This document shows positions 1 to 55,679 of a DNA stretch of 64,000 nt, piece by piece. Each line of letters begins with the position of its first letter. The stretch's first letter is position 1. The translations under genes were made by a program, and so were the position numbers. Under the pieces are notes generated by a model. The model made no database searches. It was not told where the DNA came from and was given only the letters and a program-made list of their open reading frames with translations. Origin of the DNA: a virus (lineage: Duplodnaviria > Caudoviricetes); the IMG/VR virus record IMGVR_UViG_3300027776_000009; one strand, given 5' to 3'.

Positions 1-131
1 TGGTTGGCGGTTTCTTCGGCATCGATCATGTGCGCTTCGACGGAATCAGAGCCATCGGTGTCCACGTTTTCAATGGGTTGGTCTTCAACGAGTTCTTCAA
101 GACCCAGACGATACATCAGTTTGTTGCTCAT
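1..131 (-). CDS. 5' part of a further internal head/ejection protein paralog (runs off window)
   Basis: Hand translation from ATG at 131: MSNKLMYRLGLEELVEDQPIENVDTDGSDSVEAHMIDAEETAN; same leader and GGAG RBS as 214..1644. Confidence 0.8.
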   Translation of the reverse strand, partial: MSNKLMYRLGLEELVEDQPIENVDTDGSDSVEAHMIDAEETAN

Positions 132-10415: not shown

Positions 10416-12806
10416 TTATTGCGGGTAAATGAGTTGACTCAGGCTGACGGTGAAGTCTTGAGCCTGATCAATGGCGTTGGTCATGCTGCGTACATCGTTT
10501 AGCAGTTTGGCACCGCCTTCCGATATTTCTACCAAGGTGTTGAGCAACTTGGTGACACGCTCATAAAAAAGCGCTGTATCCCTCGCGTCTACTGAAGAGA
10601 CGGGCGTTGTCTCCAGATGTTCCAGTAGCGTCTTGAATTGGGGGAGAGTAGCGATCAAGAGCTGCTTTGCTTCTGCGGCCGTGGTCAAGTAGGTTGCAAT
10701 CGGATCTCTGGCGTGACTCAGTCCCCGATAGGAAGCGGAGTTACTTACCTCAGCGTTATCATGCGTGTATCGAGCGCTTTTGACCAACTTATAAATACGA
10801 CTAGGATACGGACCGCCTCCCGCTTCACCGATATCAGTCAGGTCCAGATTATCGGGAGTCGCCAAGGGGTTGGCTTGAGTGCAGATGTATCGAAACTGAT
10901 CTGTCATCCGTTGCACACTGGAGTCTTTATCTTGATAACAGGCAACGCTACCTGCTTCGGCTACAGTCACTGCAGCATTCATCAAACGAGGAAGAGCTTC
11001 GACCAGCGTGTTACTAATGCGGGTCATGATTCCTAATCGCAAAATGGAAGACTCTGTGTTGAACACCATATCGGTTAGTGATGAGCCTTGCTTGAGTTGT
11101 TGGAGCTCAACCGCGTTAAGATAATCGCCTGTGGTGTAGAAATACGCGGCCAGGTTTTCGGAGGAACTCAGAATCGCTTCGATCTCAGAACCGGGAACCT
11201 CTAAACGTTCCAATTCTTTACGACAAGTCGACAGAATAAGATGAGGTTGAGAGGCTGCTGCCGGAGACACGGTCTCCAACATTTTTCGACCGGAGGCTGG
11301 GATCTGCTGCCGTGCTTCGGCTTCACGCTGAATAAGGCGAGAGAGGGCTTCTTGTGCAAGGCTCCCGGACCCTCCTTGCTCACTACGATGGGTTTGACCA
11401 ATGCGTGTCAACACGCTGATCAGATGATCAACAGCGAGTGCGTCGGGTTGAACAGGAAGCATCTTATCCTCCTCCATCGAAGCATACATGGCCGACACCG
11501 CAAACGCGCGATTAGCACCCAGCTCATTCAAGGTGCGCTGAAGGGCAACTTGTCCGTTGTACTTGCGGATACTGGGCTTGATCTGAGCAATCCATTTCAA
11601 CAGATTCGGGTAGGCTCTGGCGCCCGCGAGCATTCGATCAATGTATTCAATATCGCGCAGCGTTTTCCGACGCATCTCTATCGAGATTTTCGGTTCGCGT
11701 AGTCTCAGATACATCTCTCGTCGGATGAGCATCAATCGATCGATCGGGGGGTCGTAACGACTCTGATCGGGTTTTTCTGTAAGAAGACTCCAAAGAACCA
11801 GCATGGGAATCCCGATAACAGACATAGTGCACAGGGCTGCACCAACGACAGTCTTCAATACTTCCGAGGTCAAATACTCACGGTCCTTACCAAGATCTGC
11901 GGCACCATAGAAAGCAGATATCATAGCCGCCCCGCCGCCGTGGCGAACCATGAATTGATCAGCGATTTGCTCAGCAACGCGTTCATCGTAAAGATCCATC
12001 CCAAGTTCTGAAGTGATGCTGCGGCGGGCTTCCGTCAGCATCACCACTTGGTAATTAACCCCCTCAGCGCCAGGTTCTGATTTGGCTAACGATGCGACAT
12101 CAAGTTTTGTATCCCCCAAATCAACCGCATATTTGAGGACCTGCGTGCGTTCGTTGTAGTTATCAATGTTAGCCGCGGTTCGTGCAATTTGTGACAGCAT
12201 CAATGACCGTCTGACAACATACGCCATATAGACCATAGCGGTGTACAGATGACCAAGTTCGTGAAGAATGGTATCCGCTATGACTTCCTCTGCACTGTAC
12301 TCAGATGTCGGCCGCTTTGTTAGAAGACCTATCGTTATCAGGAATGGGAATTCCAGTCGACTGTAGAGCCCACTAACCTTAGATTTCCCCAGATCAATAC
12401 CTGCGGTAAACTCCTCCTTGTAATCCCGGACAATGTTCCCTAAGGCGGCTTGATCATAGAAGTCATACCCTTCATCTTTTTTCGGATCCAGGGTCTTGCT
12501 TAAGATATTGTTTTTACCCAGCCAGACAAAGGACACCGCGGCATTAGGGATCAAGTTATTCTCAATACCGAACTTGACCAGGATTCCGGTCTCGTCCAGA
12601 ATGAACTTCGACAGAGGGCTTTTCTCAAAGGCTTGATCCGTAAACTCACCCTTGGTAAGAAGTTGCCCGATAATCTTTACAAGCCCATCACGGAACGAGC
12701 CGTCCTGAAACGCGATAGTCTCCATCGAGGGAGTCAGCTCTCGGGGGAGGAGCTGCGTAAGGGAGTGCCGCATGAGGGATTCTCCGAATAAAGGGGTGTT
12801 AAGCAC
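10416..12806 (-). CDS. Head protein (phiKZ gp84-like) with zincin HExxH motif
   Basis: SMETIAFQ cleavage site, LHELGH, EQIADQF, hydrophobic segment, internal SME. Confidence 0.65.
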   Translation of the reverse strand: MLNTPLFGESLMRHSLTQLLPRELTPSMETIAFQDGSFRDGLVKIIGQLLTKGEFTDQAFEKSPLSKFILDETGILVKFGIENNLIPNAAVSFVWLGKNNILSKTLDPKKDEGYDFYDQAALGNIVRDYKEEFTAGIDLGKSKVSGLYSRLEFPFLITIGLLTKRPTSEYSAEEVIADTILHELGHLYTAMVYMAYVVRRSLMLSQIARTAANIDNYNERTQVLKYAVDLGDTKLDVASLAKSEPGAEGVNYQVVMLTEARRSITSELGMDLYDERVAEQIADQFMVRHGGGAAMISAFYGAADLGKDREYLTSEVLKTVVGAALCTMSVIGIPMLVLWSLLTEKPDQSRYDPPIDRLMLIRREMYLRLREPKISIEMRRKTLRDIEYIDRMLAGARAYPNLLKWIAQIKPSIRKYNGQVALQRTLNELGANRAFAVSAMYASMEEDKMLPVQPDALAVDHLISVLTRIGQTHRSEQGGSGSLAQEALSRLIQREAEARQQIPASGRKMLETVSPAAASQPHLILSTCRKELERLEVPGSEIEAILSSSENLAAYFYTTGDYLNAVELQQLKQGSSLTDMVFNTESSILRLGIMTRISNTLVEALPRLMNAAVTVAEAGSVACYQDKDSSVQRMTDQFRYICTQANPLATPDNLDLTDIGEAGGGPYPSRIYKLVKSARYTHDNAEVSNSASYRGLSHARDPIATYLTTAAEAKQLLIATLPQFKTLLEHLETTPVSSVDARDTALFYERVTKLLNTLVEISEGGAKLLNDVRSMTNAIDQAQDFTVSLSQLIYPQ

Positions 12807-16149: not shown

Positions 16150-16181
16150 ACGGTGAGAGATTGAGAGAGCGTGTCATTAAG

Positions 16182-16195
16182 GTAGTATATATCTG
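16182..16195 (-). promoter_or_regulatory. Putative early (virion RNAP) promoter
   Basis: CAGATATATACTAC; recurrent motif resembling phiKZ early TATATTAC. Confidence 0.6.
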
Positions 16196-22081: not shown

Positions 22082-22115
22082 GGTGGCCTCCTACGGCTTT
22101 GGTTTGGTCAATCAG

Positions 22116-22128
22116 GTAGTATATATCT
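22116..22128 (-). promoter_or_regulatory. Putative early promoter
   Basis: TTTTTTTGAGATATATACTAC. Confidence 0.65.
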
Positions 22129-24509: not shown

Positions 24510-26474
24510 TTAGCCCAACAACATGGCATCGAGGGGGTGACGGGGACGTTTCTTGATGAGGAAGCTCTCCAGTGCCAGAATGATGCCCTCCTGCCCTTGA
24601 TACGCCATGGCAGCGCCCAAGGACCGCAGCTTCATGATCTGCCGATAGGTGGCCGGCTGACCTGTGATTCGTTCAAGCGGGAGATGGAAGTCCCGATTTT
24701 CACGGTCAGCTACCAAGTTACCCAGAATGATCACCTGTAAGTGGGAAAGATGGCAGGAGAGTTTCTGCGAAACTAACTCGTGCAGTGTGGTAAGCGCTGC
24801 GACAGGGTTATTGAAACTCATCAAGCTAGTGCGTCCCTTGGTTTTCCCTCCCTTGATGAAACGCTCAATGGACTGCATGTAGGCCAACGTGGAGAAGTGT
24901 TTCGGGGGAAGCTCGATAAATGCGCGTGCGTAGTCCCAGTGTGACATGTCCACTAAGTAATTACCGCGGTTATCCATCGTGCACCCATGATTACAGATGT
25001 AGAGCAGCATGTCACGGGTTAGCACTCCCTTGGTTGCGCCGGTTTCCACACGGATGGTGTTGCGGACTTCCATGTTATCATCCGCCACAATAAACGTCAT
25101 GTAGCTAATGCCTGACAAGGCTTGTGGATTCAGTGCGTCCAAGTCCGGCGCAGAGCGTACGTCCAGAATGTTCTTGGCTTCTTTCGCGGGGAATTGCAGC
25201 GTCAGTTTCTTACGAGCCAAGTTTTCATTCAAGCACAATGTGTTCTCTTCCGATCCGTAACTGATGTAGGGTTCATCAATGTCAGAGATGAAGAAGTCGT
25301 CCACATGTGCCGAAGCATCGAGATGCTTATTGGACAACAGCAGTTGGGTAACCGTAGAGAGTAGATCAAATGAACACACGAAACCGATGGAGGTCTTAGC
25401 CGGCACCGAGTACCCCAACTCCCCAAAGCAGGTAGTACAGATACCGTAACGATCCGGATGTTTGCAAGTGAAGGCTGACCGGATGTTGACAACAGTTCCC
25501 ACGAGATGTGAATCCGATTGCTTAATCACTCGGAGCTTCTGGGAATCACCATCAAAGTATCGGATACCCACCATATCCTTCAAGAGGTTTTGGGTATTGA
25601 TGGCAATGGGGAGATACTCCCGTGATCCGCAATCCCCTTCGTGTAACTTACAGACGGTTTCCGTAGACAGTTGAGCTGTACGGTTAAAGTACTCGGACTT
25701 CCGCATGGGGTCATCGCTGAAGTAGAGCGACTTCGCTGCCGTCCGCGATTCCATCAGCGTATCTGAAAGACGCCGCATGCCGTGAGCAAACCCACGGCGA
25801 ATGGTTTCTGGGAAGACTTCTGACCCGATATCCGTCACCTTACCGCGAGCTGAAACGCACTGGATGGTTTGCCGGATATCCACCATTCCAGCCCTGACCG
25901 CTTTAGCTACCCCGTTGGTGGGGAGTTCGAGGGGGTCCATCAGCACTTTACGCACCGTTGCGTGTGTGTTCACGATATCGCTTTCTTTCACCCGCGGCAT
26001 CGTTTGGAGCCGATGATTGACTTCGTAGATCTTGGGGTGATGGAGCACCTCTACGAAGTCTAAGGCACTGATGGTCCCCACGTACCGATCAAGTTTTTCC
26101 TTGGAGGCAGTGAAGAGGGCGTCGAATGCTTCATATACCCAACGGCTCCATTCCTCCATCTCGATAGGAATCCCTCGGTCCTCGCACAGATCGCGTAGGT
26201 CAAACATGGCTCGTTCCTTGAGCTCCAAATGAGACCGCTTATTAACCTGTCCCTTCAGCAAGTAACGCGAAGTCAGGGGAAGCTCGGGGTATTTAACATG
26301 GAAGATCCAGCAGTACCACGAGAAGATTAAGTAGCGTCCATTGGTTTCTACTTCTTCCCCATCGTCAAAGATGACTGTGACGTGCCCCAGGTTTTCGATC
26401 TCCCAGATCTCGGTCTCACTGTAGGTGAGCAGATCTCTGGCGTTAATCTTACGCATCTTCTCTCTCCTCGTCAT
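24510..26474 (-). CDS. Non-virion RNA polymerase beta' C-terminal subunit (phiKZ gp74-like)
   Basis: ESRTAAKSL..SEYFNR, DCGS, RSAFTC..ICTTCFG, LLSNKH. Confidence 0.9.
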   Translation of the reverse strand: MTRREKMRKINARDLLTYSETEIWEIENLGHVTVIFDDGEEVETNGRYLIFSWYCWIFHVKYPELPLTSRYLLKGQVNKRSHLELKERAMFDLRDLCEDRGIPIEMEEWSRWVYEAFDALFTASKEKLDRYVGTISALDFVEVLHHPKIYEVNHRLQTMPRVKESDIVNTHATVRKVLMDPLELPTNGVAKAVRAGMVDIRQTIQCVSARGKVTDIGSEVFPETIRRGFAHGMRRLSDTLMESRTAAKSLYFSDDPMRKSEYFNRTAQLSTETVCKLHEGDCGSREYLPIAINTQNLLKDMVGIRYFDGDSQKLRVIKQSDSHLVGTVVNIRSAFTCKHPDRYGICTTCFGELGYSVPAKTSIGFVCSFDLLSTVTQLLLSNKHLDASAHVDDFFISDIDEPYISYGSEENTLCLNENLARKKLTLQFPAKEAKNILDVRSAPDLDALNPQALSGISYMTFIVADDNMEVRNTIRVETGATKGVLTRDMLLYICNHGCTMDNRGNYLVDMSHWDYARAFIELPPKHFSTLAYMQSIERFIKGGKTKGRTSLMSFNNPVAALTTLHELVSQKLSCHLSHLQVIILGNLVADRENRDFHLPLERITGQPATYRQIMKLRSLGAAMAYQGQEGIILALESFLIKKRPRHPLDAMLLG

Positions 26475-28485
26475 TCACCACAAAACGCAGACCTGCACAC
26501 GCCATGTAGTGTCTTACCATAGTAACCACCCGCCCGTTCCCACGCGGAACCTTTCGACGATCAACGGCTTGGTCAATATCCGTTGGGTTATCTGCCCGCA
26601 GGATAGATTCAACAACTTCTCGATGGACCCGAGGGTTGTTGGACTGGTCCAGAATCTCAGCCGTTGTATCCCCACCGCAAACCGCTGCAATCATACGGCA
26701 CTCGGATTCCCCCATGATCCGCACTGCTTGTTCCCGTCCGGGATTGCTATACTTCTCAGCACCACTGATCTTGACCGGCGTGCCGAAGTTTTGGATCTTG
26801 GCTGAAGAAACCGCTGATCCGGTATTAGCGATCTTTTCCAGCAGCAGGATGTAAAGCCCGCCAATGATAATGGGGTCGTAGGTTGTGACCATGTTACCCG
26901 AGGCCCCGCGATAAGTCACGGGTGCATTACAGGCCGGGAACTCGTCCCGGAGGCCCGCAATGATGTTGTGAAACTCGATCGGGTGATTGGTGGGGAAGTG
27001 GGTATAGAATCCGTCACGCAATACATCGTCCAGCAAATCGTTGAGCGATACTCCCGATTTACTGATGTATTCCACCATCGGCGGCGACACTATCTCAAAC
27101 CACCGCATCATGCACTGCACGGCAACTTCGCGCTCCTGACGGCGCACCATATCCCTCAGTCTGAGGTGTGTTGCGTACCCACTGGCGTTGATGTACTGCT
27201 CATACAAGCGACCAATGTTCATCCGCTTGATGGTAGAGTCCCCGTCCACAATCAGGTCGGCCACATTACCGAGTTCATCACGAGGCATGTCCGCCCGGGG
27301 CTTCTTACTGACAATAATCCCCTTACCCCCATGAAGGTCTGTCAGCTTGAACCCAATGGTTGGAATGATGTCGTAGGAGAACACCACGGTGATTTGCCAT
27401 TCATCAATCGGGCTATAGGCGTAGGTAGGCGTTACCGCGCTCCCTTTACTGATATCCGTAACTGCCATGGCTTCCACCACCAAGCTCTCAAACTCTGGTG
27501 ATACCACACCGTTGCCCTCCCGTGAGATCCGCTGATATTCCTTAAGGATACCTTGGTAGTAGGCACACGAACTGCGATAGTATTCTTCGCATTGTGCGGC
27601 GACACCGACTGGAAGCACACTGCGCCCACGCCCCCCTCGGCGAACAATAATATCAACCACTCGCGCGTTCGGGACGGCGTACGTTTTACGATCAAACAAA
27701 TCCGTGGTCATCAGGGCGCGAGCCGACATTCCCGTGATGTAATTATTCGGATCCACCTTGCGGACAGCAAACAACAGACCATCGGGGCGAATGCGTTCAC
27801 CGATATCCGGCATGATCTTGTACTTGTTGATATCTCCCATGAGATTGATGGGTACGCCGTTGGCGCCAATGCTGAATGTCCGACTACCGTATCCACGAGA
27901 CGCAAGTTTCTGCAAGAATTCCTCTTGTGCCACAATGCCATCTTCAATGATATCGGGGTGCGACATCATGGCGACCTGCGCCTCAATCCCAAACCGGTAA
28001 TCCCCGTCGGGAGTTAAAGAGGGCGAGTGCGCCAGAATCGTGTCTTTGGGAATACAGGCACCGGGCTCCAACATGGTGGCGGCGGCTTCTGTATAGACGT
28101 AATCAAAACCGAAGTACTGATGATTGGAGTGAAACCCTGTTAGGTTAAGTACACCAACCTCCCGAGTGTGCACATTTTCGTAGATAACTGAGGTAACGGG
28201 GGATGGCATGTCGGGACGGTCCATCTGCAAGGTTTGGTACTTCCGCACCAACCGCAAGACGATGGCGTCACACGGCATTCGAATGCAGTGAGTCTGTTCA
28301 CCGTAGCGTCGCTCAACCCCCGTAAGCTGGCGTTTGATGGATGGTTGGCTGATCACTGGGGTCTGACCAATATGGTTTCCATACATCGCGGTGCGGGCAG
28401 AACTGTTGGCCGATACGAAGGCGTTCAGACCGAGGAGTCCCTGAACTTCAGGGCGGAGTTCACTGGGTTCGTTCATCATGTTCAC
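26449..28485 (-). CDS. Non-virion RNA polymerase beta C-terminal subunit (phiKZ gp71/73-like), uninterrupted
   Basis: SSARTAM, IEDG, GFKLTDLHGGKG, RMNIG, RIMGESE. Confidence 0.92.
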   Translation of the reverse strand: MNMMNEPSELRPEVQGLLGLNAFVSANSSARTAMYGNHIGQTPVISQPSIKRQLTGVERRYGEQTHCIRMPCDAIVLRLVRKYQTLQMDRPDMPSPVTSVIYENVHTREVGVLNLTGFHSNHQYFGFDYVYTEAAATMLEPGACIPKDTILAHSPSLTPDGDYRFGIEAQVAMMSHPDIIEDGIVAQEEFLQKLASRGYGSRTFSIGANGVPINLMGDINKYKIMPDIGERIRPDGLLFAVRKVDPNNYITGMSARALMTTDLFDRKTYAVPNARVVDIIVRRGGRGRSVLPVGVAAQCEEYYRSSCAYYQGILKEYQRISREGNGVVSPEFESLVVEAMAVTDISKGSAVTPTYAYSPIDEWQITVVFSYDIIPTIGFKLTDLHGGKGIIVSKKPRADMPRDELGNVADLIVDGDSTIKRMNIGRLYEQYINASGYATHLRLRDMVRRQEREVAVQCMMRWFEIVSPPMVEYISKSGVSLNDLLDDVLRDGFYTHFPTNHPIEFHNIIAGLRDEFPACNAPVTYRGASGNMVTTYDPIIIGGLYILLLEKIANTGSAVSSAKIQNFGTPVKISGAEKYSNPGREQAVRIMGESECRMIAAVCGGDTTAEILDQSNNPRVHREVVESILRADNPTDIDQAVDRRKVPRGNGRVVTMVRHYMACAGLRFVVNDEEREDA

Positions 28486-28631
28486 ACCTTTTTACTTATT
28501 GGATGAGGGTTTCGCCGAGGACGGCTGTTCACCATTCCGTCTGACATCATTGCTGAGCGAGACGGATCTCTCACAATGGTCCAGGGGTTTAATCCCGGGA
28601 TAGTATTCAGGACACTAGGTTTGCTAGACAT
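28482..28631 (-). CDS. 49-aa peptide upstream of nvRNAP beta (below ORF-track cutoff)
   Basis: Hand translation MSSKPSVLNTIPGLNPWTIVRDPSRSAMMSDGMVNSRPRRNPHPISKKV; GGAGAG RBS; stop overlaps beta start region. Confidence 0.6.
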   Translation of the reverse strand: MSSKPSVLNTIPGLNPWTIVRDPSRSAMMSDGMVNSRPRRNPHPISKKV

Positions 28632-28661
28632 GTTTCTCTCCAGAGTTGTTGCTTCAAGGGG

Positions 28662-28674
28662 ATAGTATGTGTCT
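28662..28674 (-). promoter_or_regulatory. Putative early promoter for nvRNAP operon
   Basis: TTTTTTAGACACATACTAT. Confidence 0.55.
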
Positions 28675-28697
28675 AAAAAAGAATGTGGAGTATCATC

Positions 28698-29045
28698 ATG
28701 GCGACGGCCAGTCCTTTGGAAAACTCGTTGACTGATGACGGTCCGTTGGTTTTCTATACCGAAAAGTTTCGCGCAATGATTGAGGCTAACCTCAATTACA
28801 TACGCAGTGCCGGGCAGTTTTATACGGTACCTATTGATCCAGATAAAGCGTACCGTTACGAATACAACTTCTACGGGTTACTCCGTGAACTCAGCGTTCC
28901 TAAACACCTCTTGTGGATTGTTATGCGAGTCAATGGATTAACAGACCCCTCGGAGTTCCAACGCGACGCTAGCTTGCTTTGGATTCCCGATGTGAATGTG
29001 ATTGATCGACTTAAAGCGGTTTACACTAATCTGGACACTCCTTGA
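28698..29045 (+). CDS. Conserved small protein, LysM/baseplate-wedge gp53-like
   Basis: LLWIVMRVNGLTDP..LLWIPD pattern; GGAG RBS before MATAS. Confidence 0.55.
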   Translation: MATASPLENSLTDDGPLVFYTEKFRAMIEANLNYIRSAGQFYTVPIDPDKAYRYEYNFYGLLRELSVPKHLLWIVMRVNGLTDPSEFQRDASLLWIPDVNVIDRLKAVYTNLDTP

Positions 29046-31996: not shown

Positions 31997-33577
31997 TTAT
32001 TGGTTGATGAGAATCACCAACCGAGCCAAACGATCTCCGAGGCTAATCGGATCCTGATGCGGGTGCAAACGGATGCGCCCTAGCATGTCCAGTTCAATAC
32101 CTGGGTAACGTTTCAATAAGGTCTCTGGCATAGTGCAAACCCAAGGAACCTCATTAAGGAGACCAACCTGCCGTTGGATCTGGACTACCGCGGGATTTCC
32201 TTTTGCTCCTCCCTCAGGTAGTGTGTATGGGTAAAGTTTTTGGAGCTGTTCCATGTAGCGTGACGTAATCTTCGCCAACCCCATGGTGTCGGTCATGACG
32301 CCGTCTTCCATTTCCATAGGCGCTGCTGTTACGATGGCTGCCAGAAGAGGAAGTTCCCAGTGTAACAACAGCGCTTGAGTAACCCCCATGCAGTTAAGCA
32401 GTGCGCCATGGCGTTTGGTAATATAGTCCATGGCCTGAATTGGCAGCCCTTTCCCGCGGCGGCCGGAACACAAAACCCAAGACATCAACTGCATCTGGGC
32501 TTCTTCAATCGGACGTATATCCTGTTGATGAGCGTGACCCACACACAGCAACACCAGCTCTTCCGGGATATCTGGATCCATGTCGCGAGCCATGACGACA
32601 GGGCTTTCCGCATAAACACCAAACCCCGCTCGATCACCAGCCGGGAGGTCTTCGGCTTTGTTGTAAGCTTCCAGCCGCGATTGATCCTGCATGGGGTCGT
32701 CTTCCCCCTTTTGCGGGTTCTTCTCCTTGACCCCGCCAAACTTCTTATCCAACTCCCGGAGCGTGTAGAAGATGAAAGAGTAAATGTTGCTGATAATCGA
32801 ACCACGGGTGTCGCCAGCATCGACTTCACCGAGAGCCATACGGCGAACCATTACCAACCCCAGTATCCAGTCAGGGAGATCGGCGCTGGATAATCCATCC
32901 AGAATAGCTGCTGCCATCTTGTCGTCCCACGAGGGAGATGACCCAATGGTGGCTTCAATGTAGCGACGCAGACGCAGCACGGGTTCGGAGGTAATCATGG
33001 AGGTCTGTGACAGCAACCCCATGGCGCGGTACTCCTTATACGTGGTTTTGGTTTCCTTCTGGATCAAGGAGAGAAACCATCCCCAAATAGGTACCATCGG
33101 TCGGAGCGCGATGGTTAGTACCACCAACCCGCGATAATCAGACTTCAGATACGTCTTGTCAGGAACCGTGTCCTCTGCATCCAACTCATCCTTCAGTGTA
33201 TCCGGATGCCGGATTTGACCGTGGAGCTCAACCCAGCGCTCTAGTTCTGCGAGCGGCATTTGCTCATACAGCTCTTTGATAATAGGAGCACACACCTCAA
33301 TGAGTTGCCCTAAGGTTGAACGTGTCGCCACCCCACCGCGCAATGCATCTGGCGTAGATGAGATATCTTGAAACACGACCCAAATCTGGCGATATGCTTC
33401 CCAGATTTTCAATCGGCGCTCCAAGGGGAGCCACGCCCAGTACTGGTTGATTTTTCCGAACGCGTCCACCACGGTTCGTAAATTGGTTTTCTCGAAAATA
33501 ACGATTGGCCAAGGGAGCGACTCATTCCCGTTTTCGTTAGTCAGATAGACATAACGCCCTTCTTGATACAGCATCAT
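31997..33577 (-). CDS. nvRNAP promoter-specificity subunit (phiKZ gp68-like)
   Basis: KTYLKSDYRGL..LRPMVPIWG; synteny; GGAGAG RBS before MMLYQ. Confidence 0.75.
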   Translation of the reverse strand: MMLYQEGRYVYLTNENGNESLPWPIVIFEKTNLRTVVDAFGKINQYWAWLPLERRLKIWEAYRQIWVVFQDISSTPDALRGGVATRSTLGQLIEVCAPIIKELYEQMPLAELERWVELHGQIRHPDTLKDELDAEDTVPDKTYLKSDYRGLVVLTIALRPMVPIWGWFLSLIQKETKTTYKEYRAMGLLSQTSMITSEPVLRLRRYIEATIGSSPSWDDKMAAAILDGLSSADLPDWILGLVMVRRMALGEVDAGDTRGSIISNIYSFIFYTLRELDKKFGGVKEKNPQKGEDDPMQDQSRLEAYNKAEDLPAGDRAGFGVYAESPVVMARDMDPDIPEELVLLCVGHAHQQDIRPIEEAQMQLMSWVLCSGRRGKGLPIQAMDYITKRHGALLNCMGVTQALLLHWELPLLAAIVTAAPMEMEDGVMTDTMGLAKITSRYMEQLQKLYPYTLPEGGAKGNPAVVQIQRQVGLLNEVPWVCTMPETLLKRYPGIELDMLGRIRLHPHQDPISLGDRLARLVILINQ

Positions 33578-37672: not shown

Positions 37673-38281
37673 TTACAGCGAACTGTTCCATCGTGAGGTG
37701 GGGTCTTCCTTGCGACGCATCAGATGAATACGCATTTGCTCCCAGGTGCGAAGAATGTCGACCTGATCCAGGAACTCCAACTCTCCGGTTCCCGGCAGCA
37801 GGTCTTCATAGTAGGTTGTAGCTACCCATTCCCCCTCTTCCTCCATAAAGACACCATTTACCACACGACGGTAGTCATAATGATCCTCACCCACCTTACC
37901 CGGTTGGTTATCAGTGTAGGATTCAGAATAACCGTCTACTTGTTGCTGATGATACATCCGGCGAACTGTGGGTTCCGCCATCAACATGGCAATCATACTA
38001 CTAGGCGCATGTTGAACTTCCCCAATCGTTCTGAGATACCGGATTTGATCCGGCATAAAGACATTCTCCGTATATCGCAATGCTGCACGAATCACGCGGG
38101 CAGCTCGGGACTCGTCATAGGGACGATAGACATCACGCTCGATGATCTCACGGAAACGTCTTCCACCATCACGCAGTTTGTGCGTAATGTTGTCAACGTC
38201 GCGAGTCAGATACTCCACCGTTCGGTGATGCTTACGTCCGTAGAGTTCCGCGTCAAAGGCATCAGCCGCAGACACGAACAT
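37673..38281 (-). CDS. phiKZ gp59-like core protein (Imp3 position)
   Basis: MAEPTVR..VDGYS..HYDYRRVVNG..EDPTS. Confidence 0.7.
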   Translation of the reverse strand: MFVSAADAFDAELYGRKHHRTVEYLTRDVDNITHKLRDGGRRFREIIERDVYRPYDESRAARVIRAALRYTENVFMPDQIRYLRTIGEVQHAPSSMIAMLMAEPTVRRMYHQQQVDGYSESYTDNQPGKVGEDHYDYRRVVNGVFMEEEGEWVATTYYEDLLPGTGELEFLDQVDILRTWEQMRIHLMRRKEDPTSRWNSSL

Positions 38282-38302: not shown

Positions 38303-39724
38303 TTAAGAATACTGATTCGGGTGGTTCAACCAGTTTGAAATCGTAGACACGGAGGGGGACGGCATCTGTAGGTACCCTGACAACTTACGCGGGGTGGCCA
38401 AATCAATGGCGTACAGGTGCGGCGATAGACGCTCCAAGCGGAAAGTCATATCCTTGTCCACGCTGAGGAGGAAATTCATTTCATCCCCATCGAAGTCGGC
38501 ATTTGGAGCTTTCAGGGCTAGCGGAGACATTGAGAATGATGGGTCTCTGACATCCGTTTTGATTTTTGGAACCCAAAGCCCCTGTGCTGATCCGCGACCC
38601 AGTGTAGGATTACGCTGAAACATACACGGGAGTCGACCATGGGTTGAGTTTTCGATCAGTCCTCGGAAAAGCTTGTCGATGGTCGCGTCGTAATTGTTGT
38701 TCGCATAGCTCAAGATCTGATAGATCTCTCGCGGCGAGACGTTCATACGCAGCAACCGATTCTTCAAGTGCAAACGCAGGACTTGGACACTCAGTCCCCA
38801 TGGCATATAAAGATCGTCGTACTTGTGGCGTTCACAAATGGAGGTGATGACTGCACGGGCAGAGAAATGGGTTCGGCCGCCGTATATGTGTTTGCGAAAC
38901 GCTCCACCTTTGCCACCCAAGGTGTCCTTGAAGAACCCCTGATAGTAATTACTCAGGGTGCGAATAGCTTTAGCAACACGGGCCTGCTTGTGGTACATGG
39001 TGGGGGGTGAAATAGTGTTGCTCGCTGATACGATCATTCGCAGTGCGTCGATTGCCTTGGTGATGGATGTGTCAAGACAGGCGCGTTTACCTGCTTTCTC
39101 CACCACAAATCCAGATCGGGACGGCATAGGGAGATGGGTGCAGAAGATGTCGTCTCGACACATCTCGATCCAGTCAAAGACGTCTAATCCATCAGGACCT
39201 GAAGGACTATAGAGTCCACATTCGCGCAACGCTGAAATGATGCGATCAAAGTTGGCATGGAAACTATTGATCCCGCGCTGGAATCCGTACTGGTCGATCA
39301 TTTGGAATCGAGGAGGAGCAGGCGTCCGTGGGTTGTAAGAGGGGTCACAGAACCAATAAATGATATCCCAGCCGTCGTATGTAAACTCGCGGCATAAAAT
39401 GTTAAACGCCACCGGATTGATGAGCGTAGTAACACCAGGAGGAGGACGAACCCACAATTGGCTTTCCAGCGGGCGCTCCAATGCTGCTTGAACCTCGGTG
39501 CCGCACTCGTGACAGAAGACGCCTTCATACTGACCACCGACAAGATGCCCTCCGTCACACGATGGAACCGTGCTAAGGCTATCTCCTTCTTGTCGCATCA
39601 TCAACAACGCATTCAGATGCTCTTGCCCTTCCTGGGTCTCAACGTCCAATTCGTTGGCAATGATGGGTGTATTCCGCAACCGGGCAAACTCCTCATCCAA
39701 GTTTACCAGTTCTTCATAGATCAT
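38303..39724 (-). CDS. Non-virion RNA polymerase beta' N-terminal catalytic subunit (phiKZ gp55/56.1-like), uninterrupted
   Basis: NADFDGD, RNPTL, zinc site C..CHEC. Confidence 0.93.
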   Translation of the reverse strand: MIYEELVNLDEEFARLRNTPIIANELDVETQEGQEHLNALLMMRQEGDSLSTVPSCDGGHLVGGQYEGVFCHECGTEVQAALERPLESQLWVRPPPGVTTLINPVAFNILCREFTYDGWDIIYWFCDPSYNPRTPAPPRFQMIDQYGFQRGINSFHANFDRIISALRECGLYSPSGPDGLDVFDWIEMCRDDIFCTHLPMPSRSGFVVEKAGKRACLDTSITKAIDALRMIVSASNTISPPTMYHKQARVAKAIRTLSNYYQGFFKDTLGGKGGAFRKHIYGGRTHFSARAVITSICERHKYDDLYMPWGLSVQVLRLHLKNRLLRMNVSPREIYQILSYANNNYDATIDKLFRGLIENSTHGRLPCMFQRNPTLGRGSAQGLWVPKIKTDVRDPSFSMSPLALKAPNADFDGDEMNFLLSVDKDMTFRLERLSPHLYAIDLATPRKLSGYLQMPSPSVSTISNWLNHPNQYS

Positions 39725-41630: not shown

Positions 41631-41680
41631 GTTTTTCTCTCCGGTTATGAATGATGACACGTCATGATCATGTCACTAAA

Positions 41681-41692
41681 ATAGTGTGTATG
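41681..41692 (-). promoter_or_regulatory. Putative early promoter for chimallin
   Basis: CATACACACTAT, variant of recurrent motif. Confidence 0.45.
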
Positions 41693-45826: not shown

Positions 45827-46124
45827 GATAAAGTCCTCGCTTACATCAGATAACTCAGTCTGTGAAAAAAAAAAGAGACGGCATAAACTCCCCACGGGCG
45901 TGGGGAGAATGGGGAGTTTATACCGGCAGCTTGACGGCGGCGGATCTGTGTAAAAAAGAGCCGGAGTGGATAACGCCGCGGGAGAGGGCACCGCATCACC
46001 ACACCTCCGGCTTAAGCTCGCTCATTTCAAGCGTGGCTGCCTAATGTGACACTTGGAGAATAGCGTCACATATACATACGGCGTATGTTAGAGAGCTGAC
46101 TCCCTCGATGGAGACTATCGCGTT

Positions 46125-46580
46125 TCAGGACGGCTCGTTCCATGAGGGAGTAGTGATGTGAAAGTTACCGATTCCAATCGATAACAGCGCGTTCCGAATC
46201 CGAGGAATGTCACCCAAGGTGATGTTATCCACATGAACGGTACAGGTGGCGGTAGTGACTTCCACGACAGAGTTGGTATCCAGCCATAGCCATCCCAAGG
46301 TATCCACCCGCCCGTCTTCGTATTGGATCTTGATATAGTGATAATCGTTGGATTCCGGTGGGAACGTCGGATCGATAGCGTGGATGGTGGGGTAAATATT
46401 GAGATGCGTGGAGGTAACATCGCGGTAATTCAAGGCAGTATCGCGATCCAAAATCGCTAGCACCTTGACACGATTGAAATTGGTTCCCAGCAAACTGGGC
46501 GCACGGGTGGTAAAGCTGATGACCTTACCGATCAAATCAAACGTCAGGTTCATGGTATCCTCAGTCAATGTGAATGACAA
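46125..46580 (-). CDS. Conserved small beta-rich protein (phiKZ gp49-like)
   Basis: LLGTNFNRVKVLAILD, HLNIYPTI, LGWLWL; start probably 46553. Confidence 0.65.
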   Translation of the reverse strand: MSFTLTEDTMNLTFDLIGKVISFTTRAPSLLGTNFNRVKVLAILDRDTALNYRDVTSTHLNIYPTIHAIDPTFPPESNDYHYIKIQYEDGRVDTLGWLWLDTNSVVEVTTATCTVHVDNITLGDIPRIRNALLSIGIGNFHITTPSWNEPS

Positions 46581-49716: not shown

Positions 49717-49827
49717 TGGAGTATCCTCAATGGATGTATTCTGAAAAGTAGTATATATGCCACGCTCCGTGGCCTTTATGCTATAGGATGTCCTTATCTG
49801 TTATTTTCGACGGCGGGGTTTCTACGC

Positions 49828-50634: not shown

Positions 50635-50655
50635 CTTATTGTTGAGGTCTGCACC

Positions 50656-52062
50656 ATGAGCAACAAACTGTTCTATCGCCTGGGTCTTGAAGACCTGGTC
50701 GAAGACGCTCCGGCTGACGAGCCGGAGTCACTGGAAGAAATCGCTGGCGAATCCTCTCCTGAATCTGACGTCCTGGCCGCTGAAGAGCAAGGTGAAGAAG
50801 TCGAAGGCGACGCTGACGATGTTGAAGCGATTGATGCCGACACTGAAACCATGGGTGAAGTGGTGAAGGGTCTGGAAGCTGCGCTGAAGAGCGGTAAGCC
50901 TACCAAGGACGCGATAGTCTTCTCCAACATGGCGATCAACGCCGTGAATCGGAAGTGGTTCGGTGGCACAACCTTGACCGTTTCTACTGAGTCCATCAAC
51001 TCTCCTGAAGATGCGGTTGTCGCTTCGATGGAAGGCGCTCTGGACAAGATCAAGGAACTGGGTCGTGCACTGATCGAGAAGCTCAAGAAGCTGTGGAATA
51101 CCTTCTCCGGTTGGATCAAGTCCGTCTTCGATGGTTCCGCCAAGCTGACAGCCCGCGCCAACGCCCTCGCTAAGAAGGCTGATGAAATGGCCGGTAAAGC
51201 CGCCGGTACAGTTGACTTCAAGGAATCCAACACAGGTTTGCTGGAAACCCTTGAAATCAACGGCAAGCTGAACAAGGCCACTGTTGTGGCTGGTACCGCA
51301 AGCGTGGCCAGTCTGATGGCCGCATTGGGTTCCAGCGCTCTTATTGCTGCCGATATGGGAGCGATCGGTGACAAGGTTTTCAAGGCCACTGACATTGATG
51401 CTGCCAACAGTGCCGCCGGTGAAGGCGTTAAGCAGTTGAACACTGCATACGAAAACGTCCTGAAACCGCTGGATGGCATGGTGGTCATCACCAATCCTTC
51501 CCGGGCCCCTGAGAGTGCCACTGTGGCTCGCGGCAAGAAGATTCTTCCCGGCAACAACGGCCTGTACATTATCATACCTTCTGGCGAAACCCCGAAAGAT
51601 CTGGGTGAAGCCTCCAGAATGTTTGGCAAGTACAAGTTCACCATCATGGATCTGTTGAGCGGCGCTGATCGCAAGCTGGAAGGCGAAGCCATTGCTCCGA
51701 AAGACGTCAAGGTTTTGGCAACTGCTGCTGCCGGCATCTTCGAGAAGATCGGTAGCTACAAGAAGGCTTACGCACAGCGTGAGCATCTGCGTGGCCTCGT
51801 GATCAAGCAACTGGAAAGCTCTGCTAAAGAAGCGACCGGTAATAACGAAGGTGACAAAGCGCGTATCGCTCAGGAACGCAGCAACTTTGCTCGTGCCTTC
51901 GGTACTGCTTGGTCTGCACTGGTGTCTGCTGACTACATGGTTGTCAACTATGTTCAGAAGACTGCCAAGGCCTATCTGGCATATGGCGACCTCTGTCTGA
52001 AGGCAGCCGGTGGCGGTGAGAAAGCCGAAGAGCCGAAGAAGGAAGAGCCGGCAGCTGCCTAA
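50656..52062 (+). CDS. Internal head/ejection protein, paralog of 214..1644
   Basis: First ~165 aa nearly identical, C-terminal ~100 aa similar, middle divergent. Confidence 0.85.
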   Translation: MSNKLFYRLGLEDLVEDAPADEPESLEEIAGESSPESDVLAAEEQGEEVEGDADDVEAIDADTETMGEVVKGLEAALKSGKPTKDAIVFSNMAINAVNRKWFGGTTLTVSTESINSPEDAVVASMEGALDKIKELGRALIEKLKKLWNTFSGWIKSVFDGSAKLTARANALAKKADEMAGKAAGTVDFKESNTGLLETLEINGKLNKATVVAGTASVASLMAALGSSALIAADMGAIGDKVFKATDIDAANSAAGEGVKQLNTAYENVLKPLDGMVVITNPSRAPESATVARGKKILPGNNGLYIIIPSGETPKDLGEASRMFGKYKFTIMDLLSGADRKLEGEAIAPKDVKVLATAAAGIFEKIGSYKKAYAQREHLRGLVIKQLESSAKEATGNNEGDKARIAQERSNFARAFGTAWSALVSADYMVVNYVQKTAKAYLAYGDLCLKAAGGGEKAEEPKKEEPAAA

Positions 52063-55628: not shown

Positions 55629-55665
55629 TTTGTCCTCCTACGGACAGTTGATTAGATTCACTTAG

Positions 55666-55679
55666 GTAGTATGTATCTG
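55666..55679 (-). promoter_or_regulatory. Putative early promoter
   Basis: TTTTTTTTCAGATACATACTAC. Confidence 0.65.

Follow-up and report, generated by a model that had tools for sequence, protein, structure and literature searches.

A short reading frame ahead of the RNA polymerase beta gene of a wastewater jumbo phage is probably a remnant of the gene's own start

Introduction

One locus of a Caudoviricetes genome (Duplodnaviria; IMG/VR virus record IMGVR_UViG_3300027776_000009) raises the question of why a 49-codon open reading frame (ORF) should stand directly ahead of an RNA polymerase gene and encode a peptide that echoes the start of the downstream protein. The whole stretch of DNA that was analysed, 64,000 nucleotides (nt) long, is called the window, and all positions are given in it unless another contig is named. 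The downstream gene, referred to as beta, is the orthologue of phiKZ gp71-73 and encodes the C-terminal half of the beta subunit of the non-virion RNA polymerase (nvRNAP). It was identified by matches to Pfam RNA_pol_Rpb2_6, to phrog_3295 (5.9e-201) and to the PDB entry 7ogp_C, PHIKZ071 (1.1e-233), and the roles of the nvRNAP subunits were taken as described in PMC8287921. It was concluded that the ORF is most likely a new example of a known sort of thing, namely what remains of a gene start at a recombination junction and now forms an ORF ahead of the gene. The features on which this conclusion turns are given below.

28482..28631, minus strand, 49-codon ORF with its TGA stop (ATG 28631-28629, TGA 28484-28482), probably the frame of a decayed copy of the beta 5' end
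28480..28631, minus strand, 152-nt inserted unit, absent from the relatives L001, L002 and L004, with AACATG direct repeats at both ends
28636..28641, minus strand, GGAGAG ribosome-binding site, followed downstream by AAAC and the ATG of the 49-codon ORF
28485..28490, minus strand, AAGGTG, read from the sequence as a new ribosome-binding site of beta, at the insert's 3' end and 5 nt ahead of ATG 28479
26449..28479, minus strand, nvRNAP beta C-half gene, 676 amino acids (aa), identified in Pfam, PHROGs and PDB
28661..28672, minus strand, promoter-like motif (ACACATACTATC) upstream of the operon, 30 nt upstream of the ORF, of the AYAYAYACTAYY pattern and conserved in relatives

The insert and its distribution among relatives

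A protein search with beta returned one 90%-identical match (P0001) and many matches of 51% identity or less, and further contigs for comparison were drawn from the 90% protein cluster. The data of sequencing runs were used as assembled contigs only. In L001, L002 and L004 the GGAGAG site was followed directly by the beta ATG, whereas the alignment placed 152 extra nucleotides of the window exactly between the two. The gap from the divergent upstream gene (113-116 aa) to beta was 67-71 nt in these three relatives versus about 197 nt in the window. The AACATG repeats that flank the insert were located at 28634-28629 and 28482-28477.

The insert was present in eight near-identical wastewater contigs, five of which had a beta identical to that of the window, the others being L008, L009 and L015. 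It was missing from L001, L002, L004, L006, L007, L010 and L016, the 77%-identical relative and those of about 50% identity being without it as well. In L006, L007 and L010, whose beta was 98% identical to that of the window (37-38 differences over 2023 nt), an unrelated 35-nt cassette replaced the insert. Relative to this haplotype the exchanged cassette of the window spans 28475-28634, and the joint 28474/28635 was seen in X16, a wastewater metatranscriptome contig of the same L006 type. The absence of the insert from contigs that are 98% identical in beta therefore makes the 49-codon ORF a strain-level polymorphism, carried by only one haplotype group of a wastewater jumbo phage, and not a conserved gene. 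The haplotype of the window was found in samples of several studies, and the insert was also contained in the RNA-library contig X14, which shows its presence, not its transcription or translation. Cover gaps at about 28470-28530 in X9, X13 and X14 were not counted as evidence, and may be assembly breaks at which the haplotypes differ.

The cassette of the L006 type (L006:1466-1515, also in L007, L010 and X16) contains an upstream ATG in frame with beta, which adds about eight residues (MEPSERKI) before MSPNEPSEL. Its EPSE codons recur, together with a degenerate ribosome-binding site, with a period of 27 nt, and this cassette too has the look of a small, diverged copy of the start of the gene. 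The cassette was rejected as a deletion product of the window insert, given an identity of about 14/30 against 98% in the flanks.

Resemblance of the peptide to the beta N-terminus

The resemblance was evaluated against the beta family with a hidden Markov model (HMM) built from the first 60 aa of 120 beta homologues. The peptide scored 13.9 bits, and none of 5000 shuffles, in which the initial Met was kept fixed, reached this score, the shuffle maximum being 10.5. When hhalign was run against the profile of a 58-sequence full-length alignment, residues 8-32 of the peptide were placed on columns 14-38 of 694 with P = 2.7e-4; the profile segment that was matched corresponds to residues 13-60 of phiKZ gp71-73. 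A six-frame scan of the window (1809 pieces) ranked the ORF piece above all non-beta pieces, with E = 0.025. The best pairwise score of the peptide within the family was 57, to P0053, versus a maximum of 52 in 300 shuffle trials.

The nucleotide sequences agreed with this placement. The insert and the beta start, compared in register, were identical at 63 of 150 positions (42%), which ranked first of 620 offsets; the 619 other in-frame offsets that served as the null gave 37.6 +/- 5.2 with a maximum of 55. Further, a 22-nt direct repeat of 73% identity was found at the exact spacing of 152 nt (28613-28634 versus 28461-28482), and it consists of AACATG and the first five codons, those of beta in one copy and those of the 49-codon ORF in the other. 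The comparisons thus established the insertion, its absence from close relatives and its homology to the beta start, the last being very probably real in the light of these profile and register tests, weak and decayed as it is.

Signs of decay and variation of the peptide

The peptide keeps R29 and M32 of the beta family (numbering of the window beta). It has lost the invariant Q39 (now N) and the nearly invariant H36 (G, or R in variants), together with L41 (now R) and S26 (now D), and the conserved residues of a functional beta active-site segment were therefore only partly kept. The codon-usage score of the ORF was 0.091, which lies below 97.6% of the 49-codon windows of real genes and above 95% of the out-of-frame windows, and its own frame scored best of the three. 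Intermediate codon usage of this kind would be expected for a relic read in its original frame.

The three known single-nucleotide polymorphisms (SNPs) of the insert are G32R, T18A and one synonymous change, a ratio of two nonsynonymous to one synonymous in what is a small number. Between the same genomes beta showed 36 synonymous versus 0-2 nonsynonymous differences. Within a block of about 800 nt around the leader, the sole two differences between the window and L009 both fell inside the insert, the flanks being less diverged.

Beta of the window differed from that of L009 at 39 positions, 30 of which fell in a 435-nt patch at 27856-28291, where the divergence was about 7% versus about 0.5% elsewhere, and nearly all of these differences were synonymous. 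The patch is a recombination mosaic, and such uneven divergence between the genomes shows that recombination with more distant relatives is going on.

Start signals of the ORF and of beta

The GGAGAG site serves beta directly in the relatives without the insert, and in the alignments it stands ahead of the 49-codon ORF in the window. The same GGAGAGAAACATG initiation context was found at the gene start at 38281 and is therefore a working initiation context in this phage. The beta start was placed at ATG 28479 by the gene callers in seven contigs and by the family alignment, and the TGA of the ORF lies 2 nt ahead of this ATG. A ribosome-binding site at a working distance and a stop a few nucleotides from the downstream start, the signals of a coupled upstream ORF, were thus both present. 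No gene caller called the ORF in the eight contigs that carry the insert. On these signals the 49-codon ORF is probably translated.

An earlier note on this DNA had described the ORF as one with a GGAGAG site that follows a promoter motif and whose stop overlaps the beta start. The ORF was indeed recovered on the minus strand with 49 codons and the arrangement GGAGAG-AAAC-ATG, 30 nt downstream of the promoter-like motif at 28672-28661. The overlap was true of the mechanically assigned GTG start of beta at 28485 only, and not of the likely start at ATG 28479, which lies 2 nt beyond the stop.

The gene that uses the GGAGAGAAACATG context occupies 37673-38281 and comes next after a 473-aa ORF (38303-39724, minus strand), which carries the catalytic motif NADFDGDE and represents a beta'-N-like RNA polymerase subunit.

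Proposed origin of the insert

In the explanation that we proposed, and that is considered probable, about 50 codons from the start of an nvRNAP beta C-half gene were duplicated and the copy decayed, leaving the 49-codon ORF as its reading frame. The 152-nt tandem unit is most likely the product of unequal or illegitimate recombination at that edge of the operon which lies next to the promoter, and the partner was probably a divergent relative. As the alignments indicate, the insert displaced beta from the ancestral GGAGAG site, which would now serve the relic frame. Translation of the relic would start from the strong ancestral site and the left-hand ATG, and ribosomes would make a 49-aa by-product and stop at the TGA. 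Beta would then be translated by termination-reinitiation, from its own new AAGGTG site, or by both routes, and the peptide would have no function of its own. Of the three options offered in the earlier note, the last, in which the relic of a 5' duplication serves as a translational coupler, is the one that the results support, since the insert appears as a partial duplicate of beta that took over the ancestral site and the ATG.

Several results weigh against such an origin. The ungapped match of the peptide to beta, which the earlier note had put forward together with a check by shuffling, does exist over 16 residues (6/16 identical, BLOSUM62 score 29), and it is against the family profile that the peptide passes the shuffle test; against the phage's own beta the match remains at chance level, the score of 29 being reached by 31.5% of shuffles over the whole of beta and by 4.5% over its first 80 aa. 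The gapped score of 32 had p = 0.16 for the whole protein and p = 0.017 for the first 60 aa. BLASTP of the peptide against this beta reported nothing, and plain local DNA alignment likewise found nothing. The argument for homology therefore stands on the profile and register tests, with P of around 1e-3 to 1e-4. The eight contigs with the insert are near-identical and too alike to show whether selection keeps the ORF open, and it is from signals in the sequence that translation of the ORF, and its coupling to beta, are inferred.

The remaining points concern the source of the copy. The phage's own beta ranked 62 of 121 in its likeness to the peptide, which is nearer to the family consensus (GLNPW/F ... 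SSR..M) and to distantly related family members. The identities between the insert and the beta start by codon position were 21, 26 and 16 of 50, which suggests, in small numbers, a divergence under coding constraint. The rank of the own beta and the codon-position identities therefore hint at capture from a divergent homologue over a fresh duplication in situ. No donor of the insert was found by the protein, IMG/VR and JGI metagenome searches or at the P0053 locus; P0053, which of all family members resembles the peptide most, was rejected as the donor with a nucleotide identity of 44% over the aligned codons. Because no donor was found, the origin was left between duplication in situ and capture from another phage, and the insert may stem either from unequal recombination with a divergent co-infecting phage or from an older duplicate that was lost elsewhere.

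Alternative explanations

The 152 nt might instead be foreign or mobile DNA without beta ancestry, in which case the likeness would be coincidental and the ORF an accident downstream of an ATG. The chance-level match to the own beta would fit such an insertion, and so would the flanking AACATG direct repeat, which resembles a target-site duplication; other random pieces of the window also reached 10.1 and 9.2 bits with the same HMM, versus 11.3 bits for the ORF piece. This explanation was nevertheless judged unlikely, as it leaves unaccounted the HMM score that no shuffle reached, the hhalign placement on the N-terminal columns, the match in register with the start codon, the 22-nt repeat at the exact period of the insert and the first rank of the DNA identity. 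In addition, a search for a miniature mobile element revealed no terminal inverted repeats and no other copy in the 64-kb window, and the insert RNA belonged to no Rfam family. Quite unlikely, in turn, is a selected regulatory leader, in which the ORF would tune the output of beta relative to beta' or the other subunits, either through obligatory coupling or because the strong ribosome-binding site is sequestered, whatever the sequence of the peptide. The strength of that site, the stop 2 nt before the beta ATG, the new beta site at the insert end and the occurrence of the haplotype in several studies are all compatible with it, and the different cassette of the sister haplotype shows that the spot tolerates or favours remodelling. 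The relatives, however, manage with a plain ribosome-binding site followed by the ATG, the fold of the insert RNA did not go beyond that of shuffles (z = -0.58), and comparison of the variants at hand revealed no signal of selection.

A functional mimic peptide, which would bind the N-terminal half of beta or beta' as an assembly chaperone, a competitor or an inhibitor of a rival polymerase, was the idea favoured in the earlier note; it found no support and appears highly improbable. The positions of the family motifs GLNPW and SR.AM are kept and the ORF is probably translated, which would suit a mimic, but the relatives with a 98%-identical beta lack the insert, as do all others, the peptide has lost H36 and Q39, two of the three SNPs are nonsynonymous and the codon usage is intermediate. 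The search for similar short ORFs in related phages, which the note had called for, yielded none, and no homologue of the peptide emerged anywhere it was sought, including two exhaustive protein collections. A word-based search of 5.8 billion proteins gave no candidate, and the lone phmmer hit among 1.84 billion representatives (P0121) was dismissed as an artefact, being a 670-aa junk translation of tandem repeats with 11 weak stretches. Megablast of the region against INPHARED gave no match, tblastn of the peptide against phages gave noise only (E = 4-8), Pfam and PHROGs returned nothing for the peptide, a degenerate pattern for the peptide PGLNPWTIV had no match in IMG/VR, and the searches for related loci, with beta in IMG/VR and with the peptide in JGI metagenomes, confirmed nothing. 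Hardly any probability was given to a programmed -1 frameshift, which would yield a beta C-half with a 49-aa N-terminal extension carrying the decayed duplicate. The site in question is the following.

28488..28494, minus strand, T AAA AAG, near-canonical -1 slippery heptamer in the frame of the ORF, read from the sequence

AAA AAG is the shift-prone pair of Escherichia coli dnaX and of insertion sequence (IS) elements. The heptamer lies in phase with the ORF, no stop interrupts the -1 frame from 28491 into beta (GGT GTG AAC ATG; six-frame piece 26452-28491), and in the sister haplotype beta is extended in frame at its N-terminus, starting from the same upstream ATG. Against a frameshift, the first position of the heptamer is T and not A, AAAAAGG simply doubles as the new ribosome-binding site, and comparative support is lacking. 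The low rating was given because no stimulatory element was found, there being no hairpin 5-9 nt downstream, no fold signal and no upstream stimulator resembling a Shine-Dalgarno sequence. A very doubtful variant is that the relic is active, its peptide with NPW...SR.AM docking on the N-terminal half of beta or on beta' and modulating assembly, or a -1 slip at T AAA AAG giving a minor beta isoform whose N-terminal segment is duplicated. If this were true, strain-variable leader cassettes at the split site of beta would be a way to vary the polymerase.

Relation to known systems

If the ORF is the remnant of a gene start, as preferred here, it resembles several known arrangements in part. Like the N-terminal segment of phiKZ gp71-73 (7OGP, chain C), the peptide keeps the NPW, SR and M positions; unlike that protein it has 49 aa only and is without H36, Q39 and everything downstream, which makes it a decayed fragment and not a subunit. 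The remnants at recombination junctions of mosaic phages are likewise short diverged 5' copies beside an intact gene, here with AACATG microhomology at the bounds, and they share with the insert its polymorphism among near-identical genomes that show mosaic patches. In contrast to the usual remnants, that of the window follows the ribosome-binding site and precedes the start codon exactly, so that it takes over the signals for initiation; its frame has stayed open and is probably translated.

As in the leader ORFs of bacterial and phage operons that are coupled by termination-reinitiation, a strong site and an ATG are combined in the window with a short ORF, whose stop lies 2 nt ahead of the following start. 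The ORF of the window differs from such leaders in being unconserved, in having no RNA structure of the attenuator type and in deriving from the start of the regulated gene itself. As at the -1 sites of the dnaX and IS type (A AAA AAG), AAA AAG stands in phase shortly before the upstream frame ends, and the -1 frame runs on into the next gene, whereas the heptamer of the window starts with T and has no detected stimulatory elements.

The locus shows that a motif 'echo' beside a gene can be true homology and yet a recombination scar, not a new regulator, and this calls for caution. The promoter-proximal edge of the nvRNAP beta/beta' operon is a hot spot of remodelling, with three leader forms (plain, 35-nt cassette and 152-nt relic) among closely related wastewater jumbo phages, two of which resemble partial copies of the start of the gene itself. 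Were the relic to alter the expression of beta or to extend beta, which is hypothetical, it would bear on the subunit stoichiometry of the split polymerase.

Promoter-like motif, neighbouring genes and repeats

The surroundings of the leader contain the following further features.

16181-16192, 22115-22126, 28661-28672, 32217-32228, 41680-41691, 49747-49758 and 55665-55676, all minus strand, AYAYAYACTAYY sites
28597..28606, minus strand, second copy of the promoter core (ATACTATCCC), exact over 10 nt, inside the insert, from the repeat search (original at 28659-28668)
24510..26474, minus strand, gene that follows beta in the operon, for an RNA polymerase subunit (beta'-C, gp74-like), phrog_3015 (2.1e-172), syntenic in all relatives
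28683..29045, plus strand, divergent 120-aa gene, phrog_3455, function unknown, which bounds the intergenic region

Seven occurrences of the AYAYAYACTAYY pattern were counted in the window versus 0.09 expected, without exception on the minus strand, and it is probably the phage promoter consensus for one temporal class of genes. The motif of the operon was conserved in the alignments with L001, L002 and L004, was identical across all close haplotypes and is therefore a plausible phage promoter. The ATACTATCCC copy lies 62 nt downstream of the real motif, with a chance probability of roughly 0.03, and may be a second start site that bypasses the 49-codon ORF, or due to chance. Neither a sigma-70 promoter nor a relevant terminator was found at the leader region.

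The beta'-C gene overlaps the end of beta, and no second beta-C paralogue was found in the 64-kb window. An orthologue of the phrog_3455 gene, of 113-120 aa, holds the same place in all relatives. In L004, a relative of about 50% identity, the gene after the beta'-C-like gene (L004:7987-10043) encodes at least 851 aa with a LAGLIDADG_3 match, and it may contain an intein or a homing endonuclease insertion without counterpart in the window phage.

Repeats unrelated to the leader were also recorded. A 537-nt inverted repeat of 83% complementarity joins 1112-1648 and 50652-51188, near both ends of the window, and shorter direct repeats of the same family lie about 1.5 kb apart (81-151/1594-1664 and 50652-50721/52137-52206); the family looks like a set of oppositely oriented paralogues. 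Another inverted repeat, of 58 nt and 97% complementarity, was located at 12685-12742 and 46091-46148, its arms being 33 kb apart.

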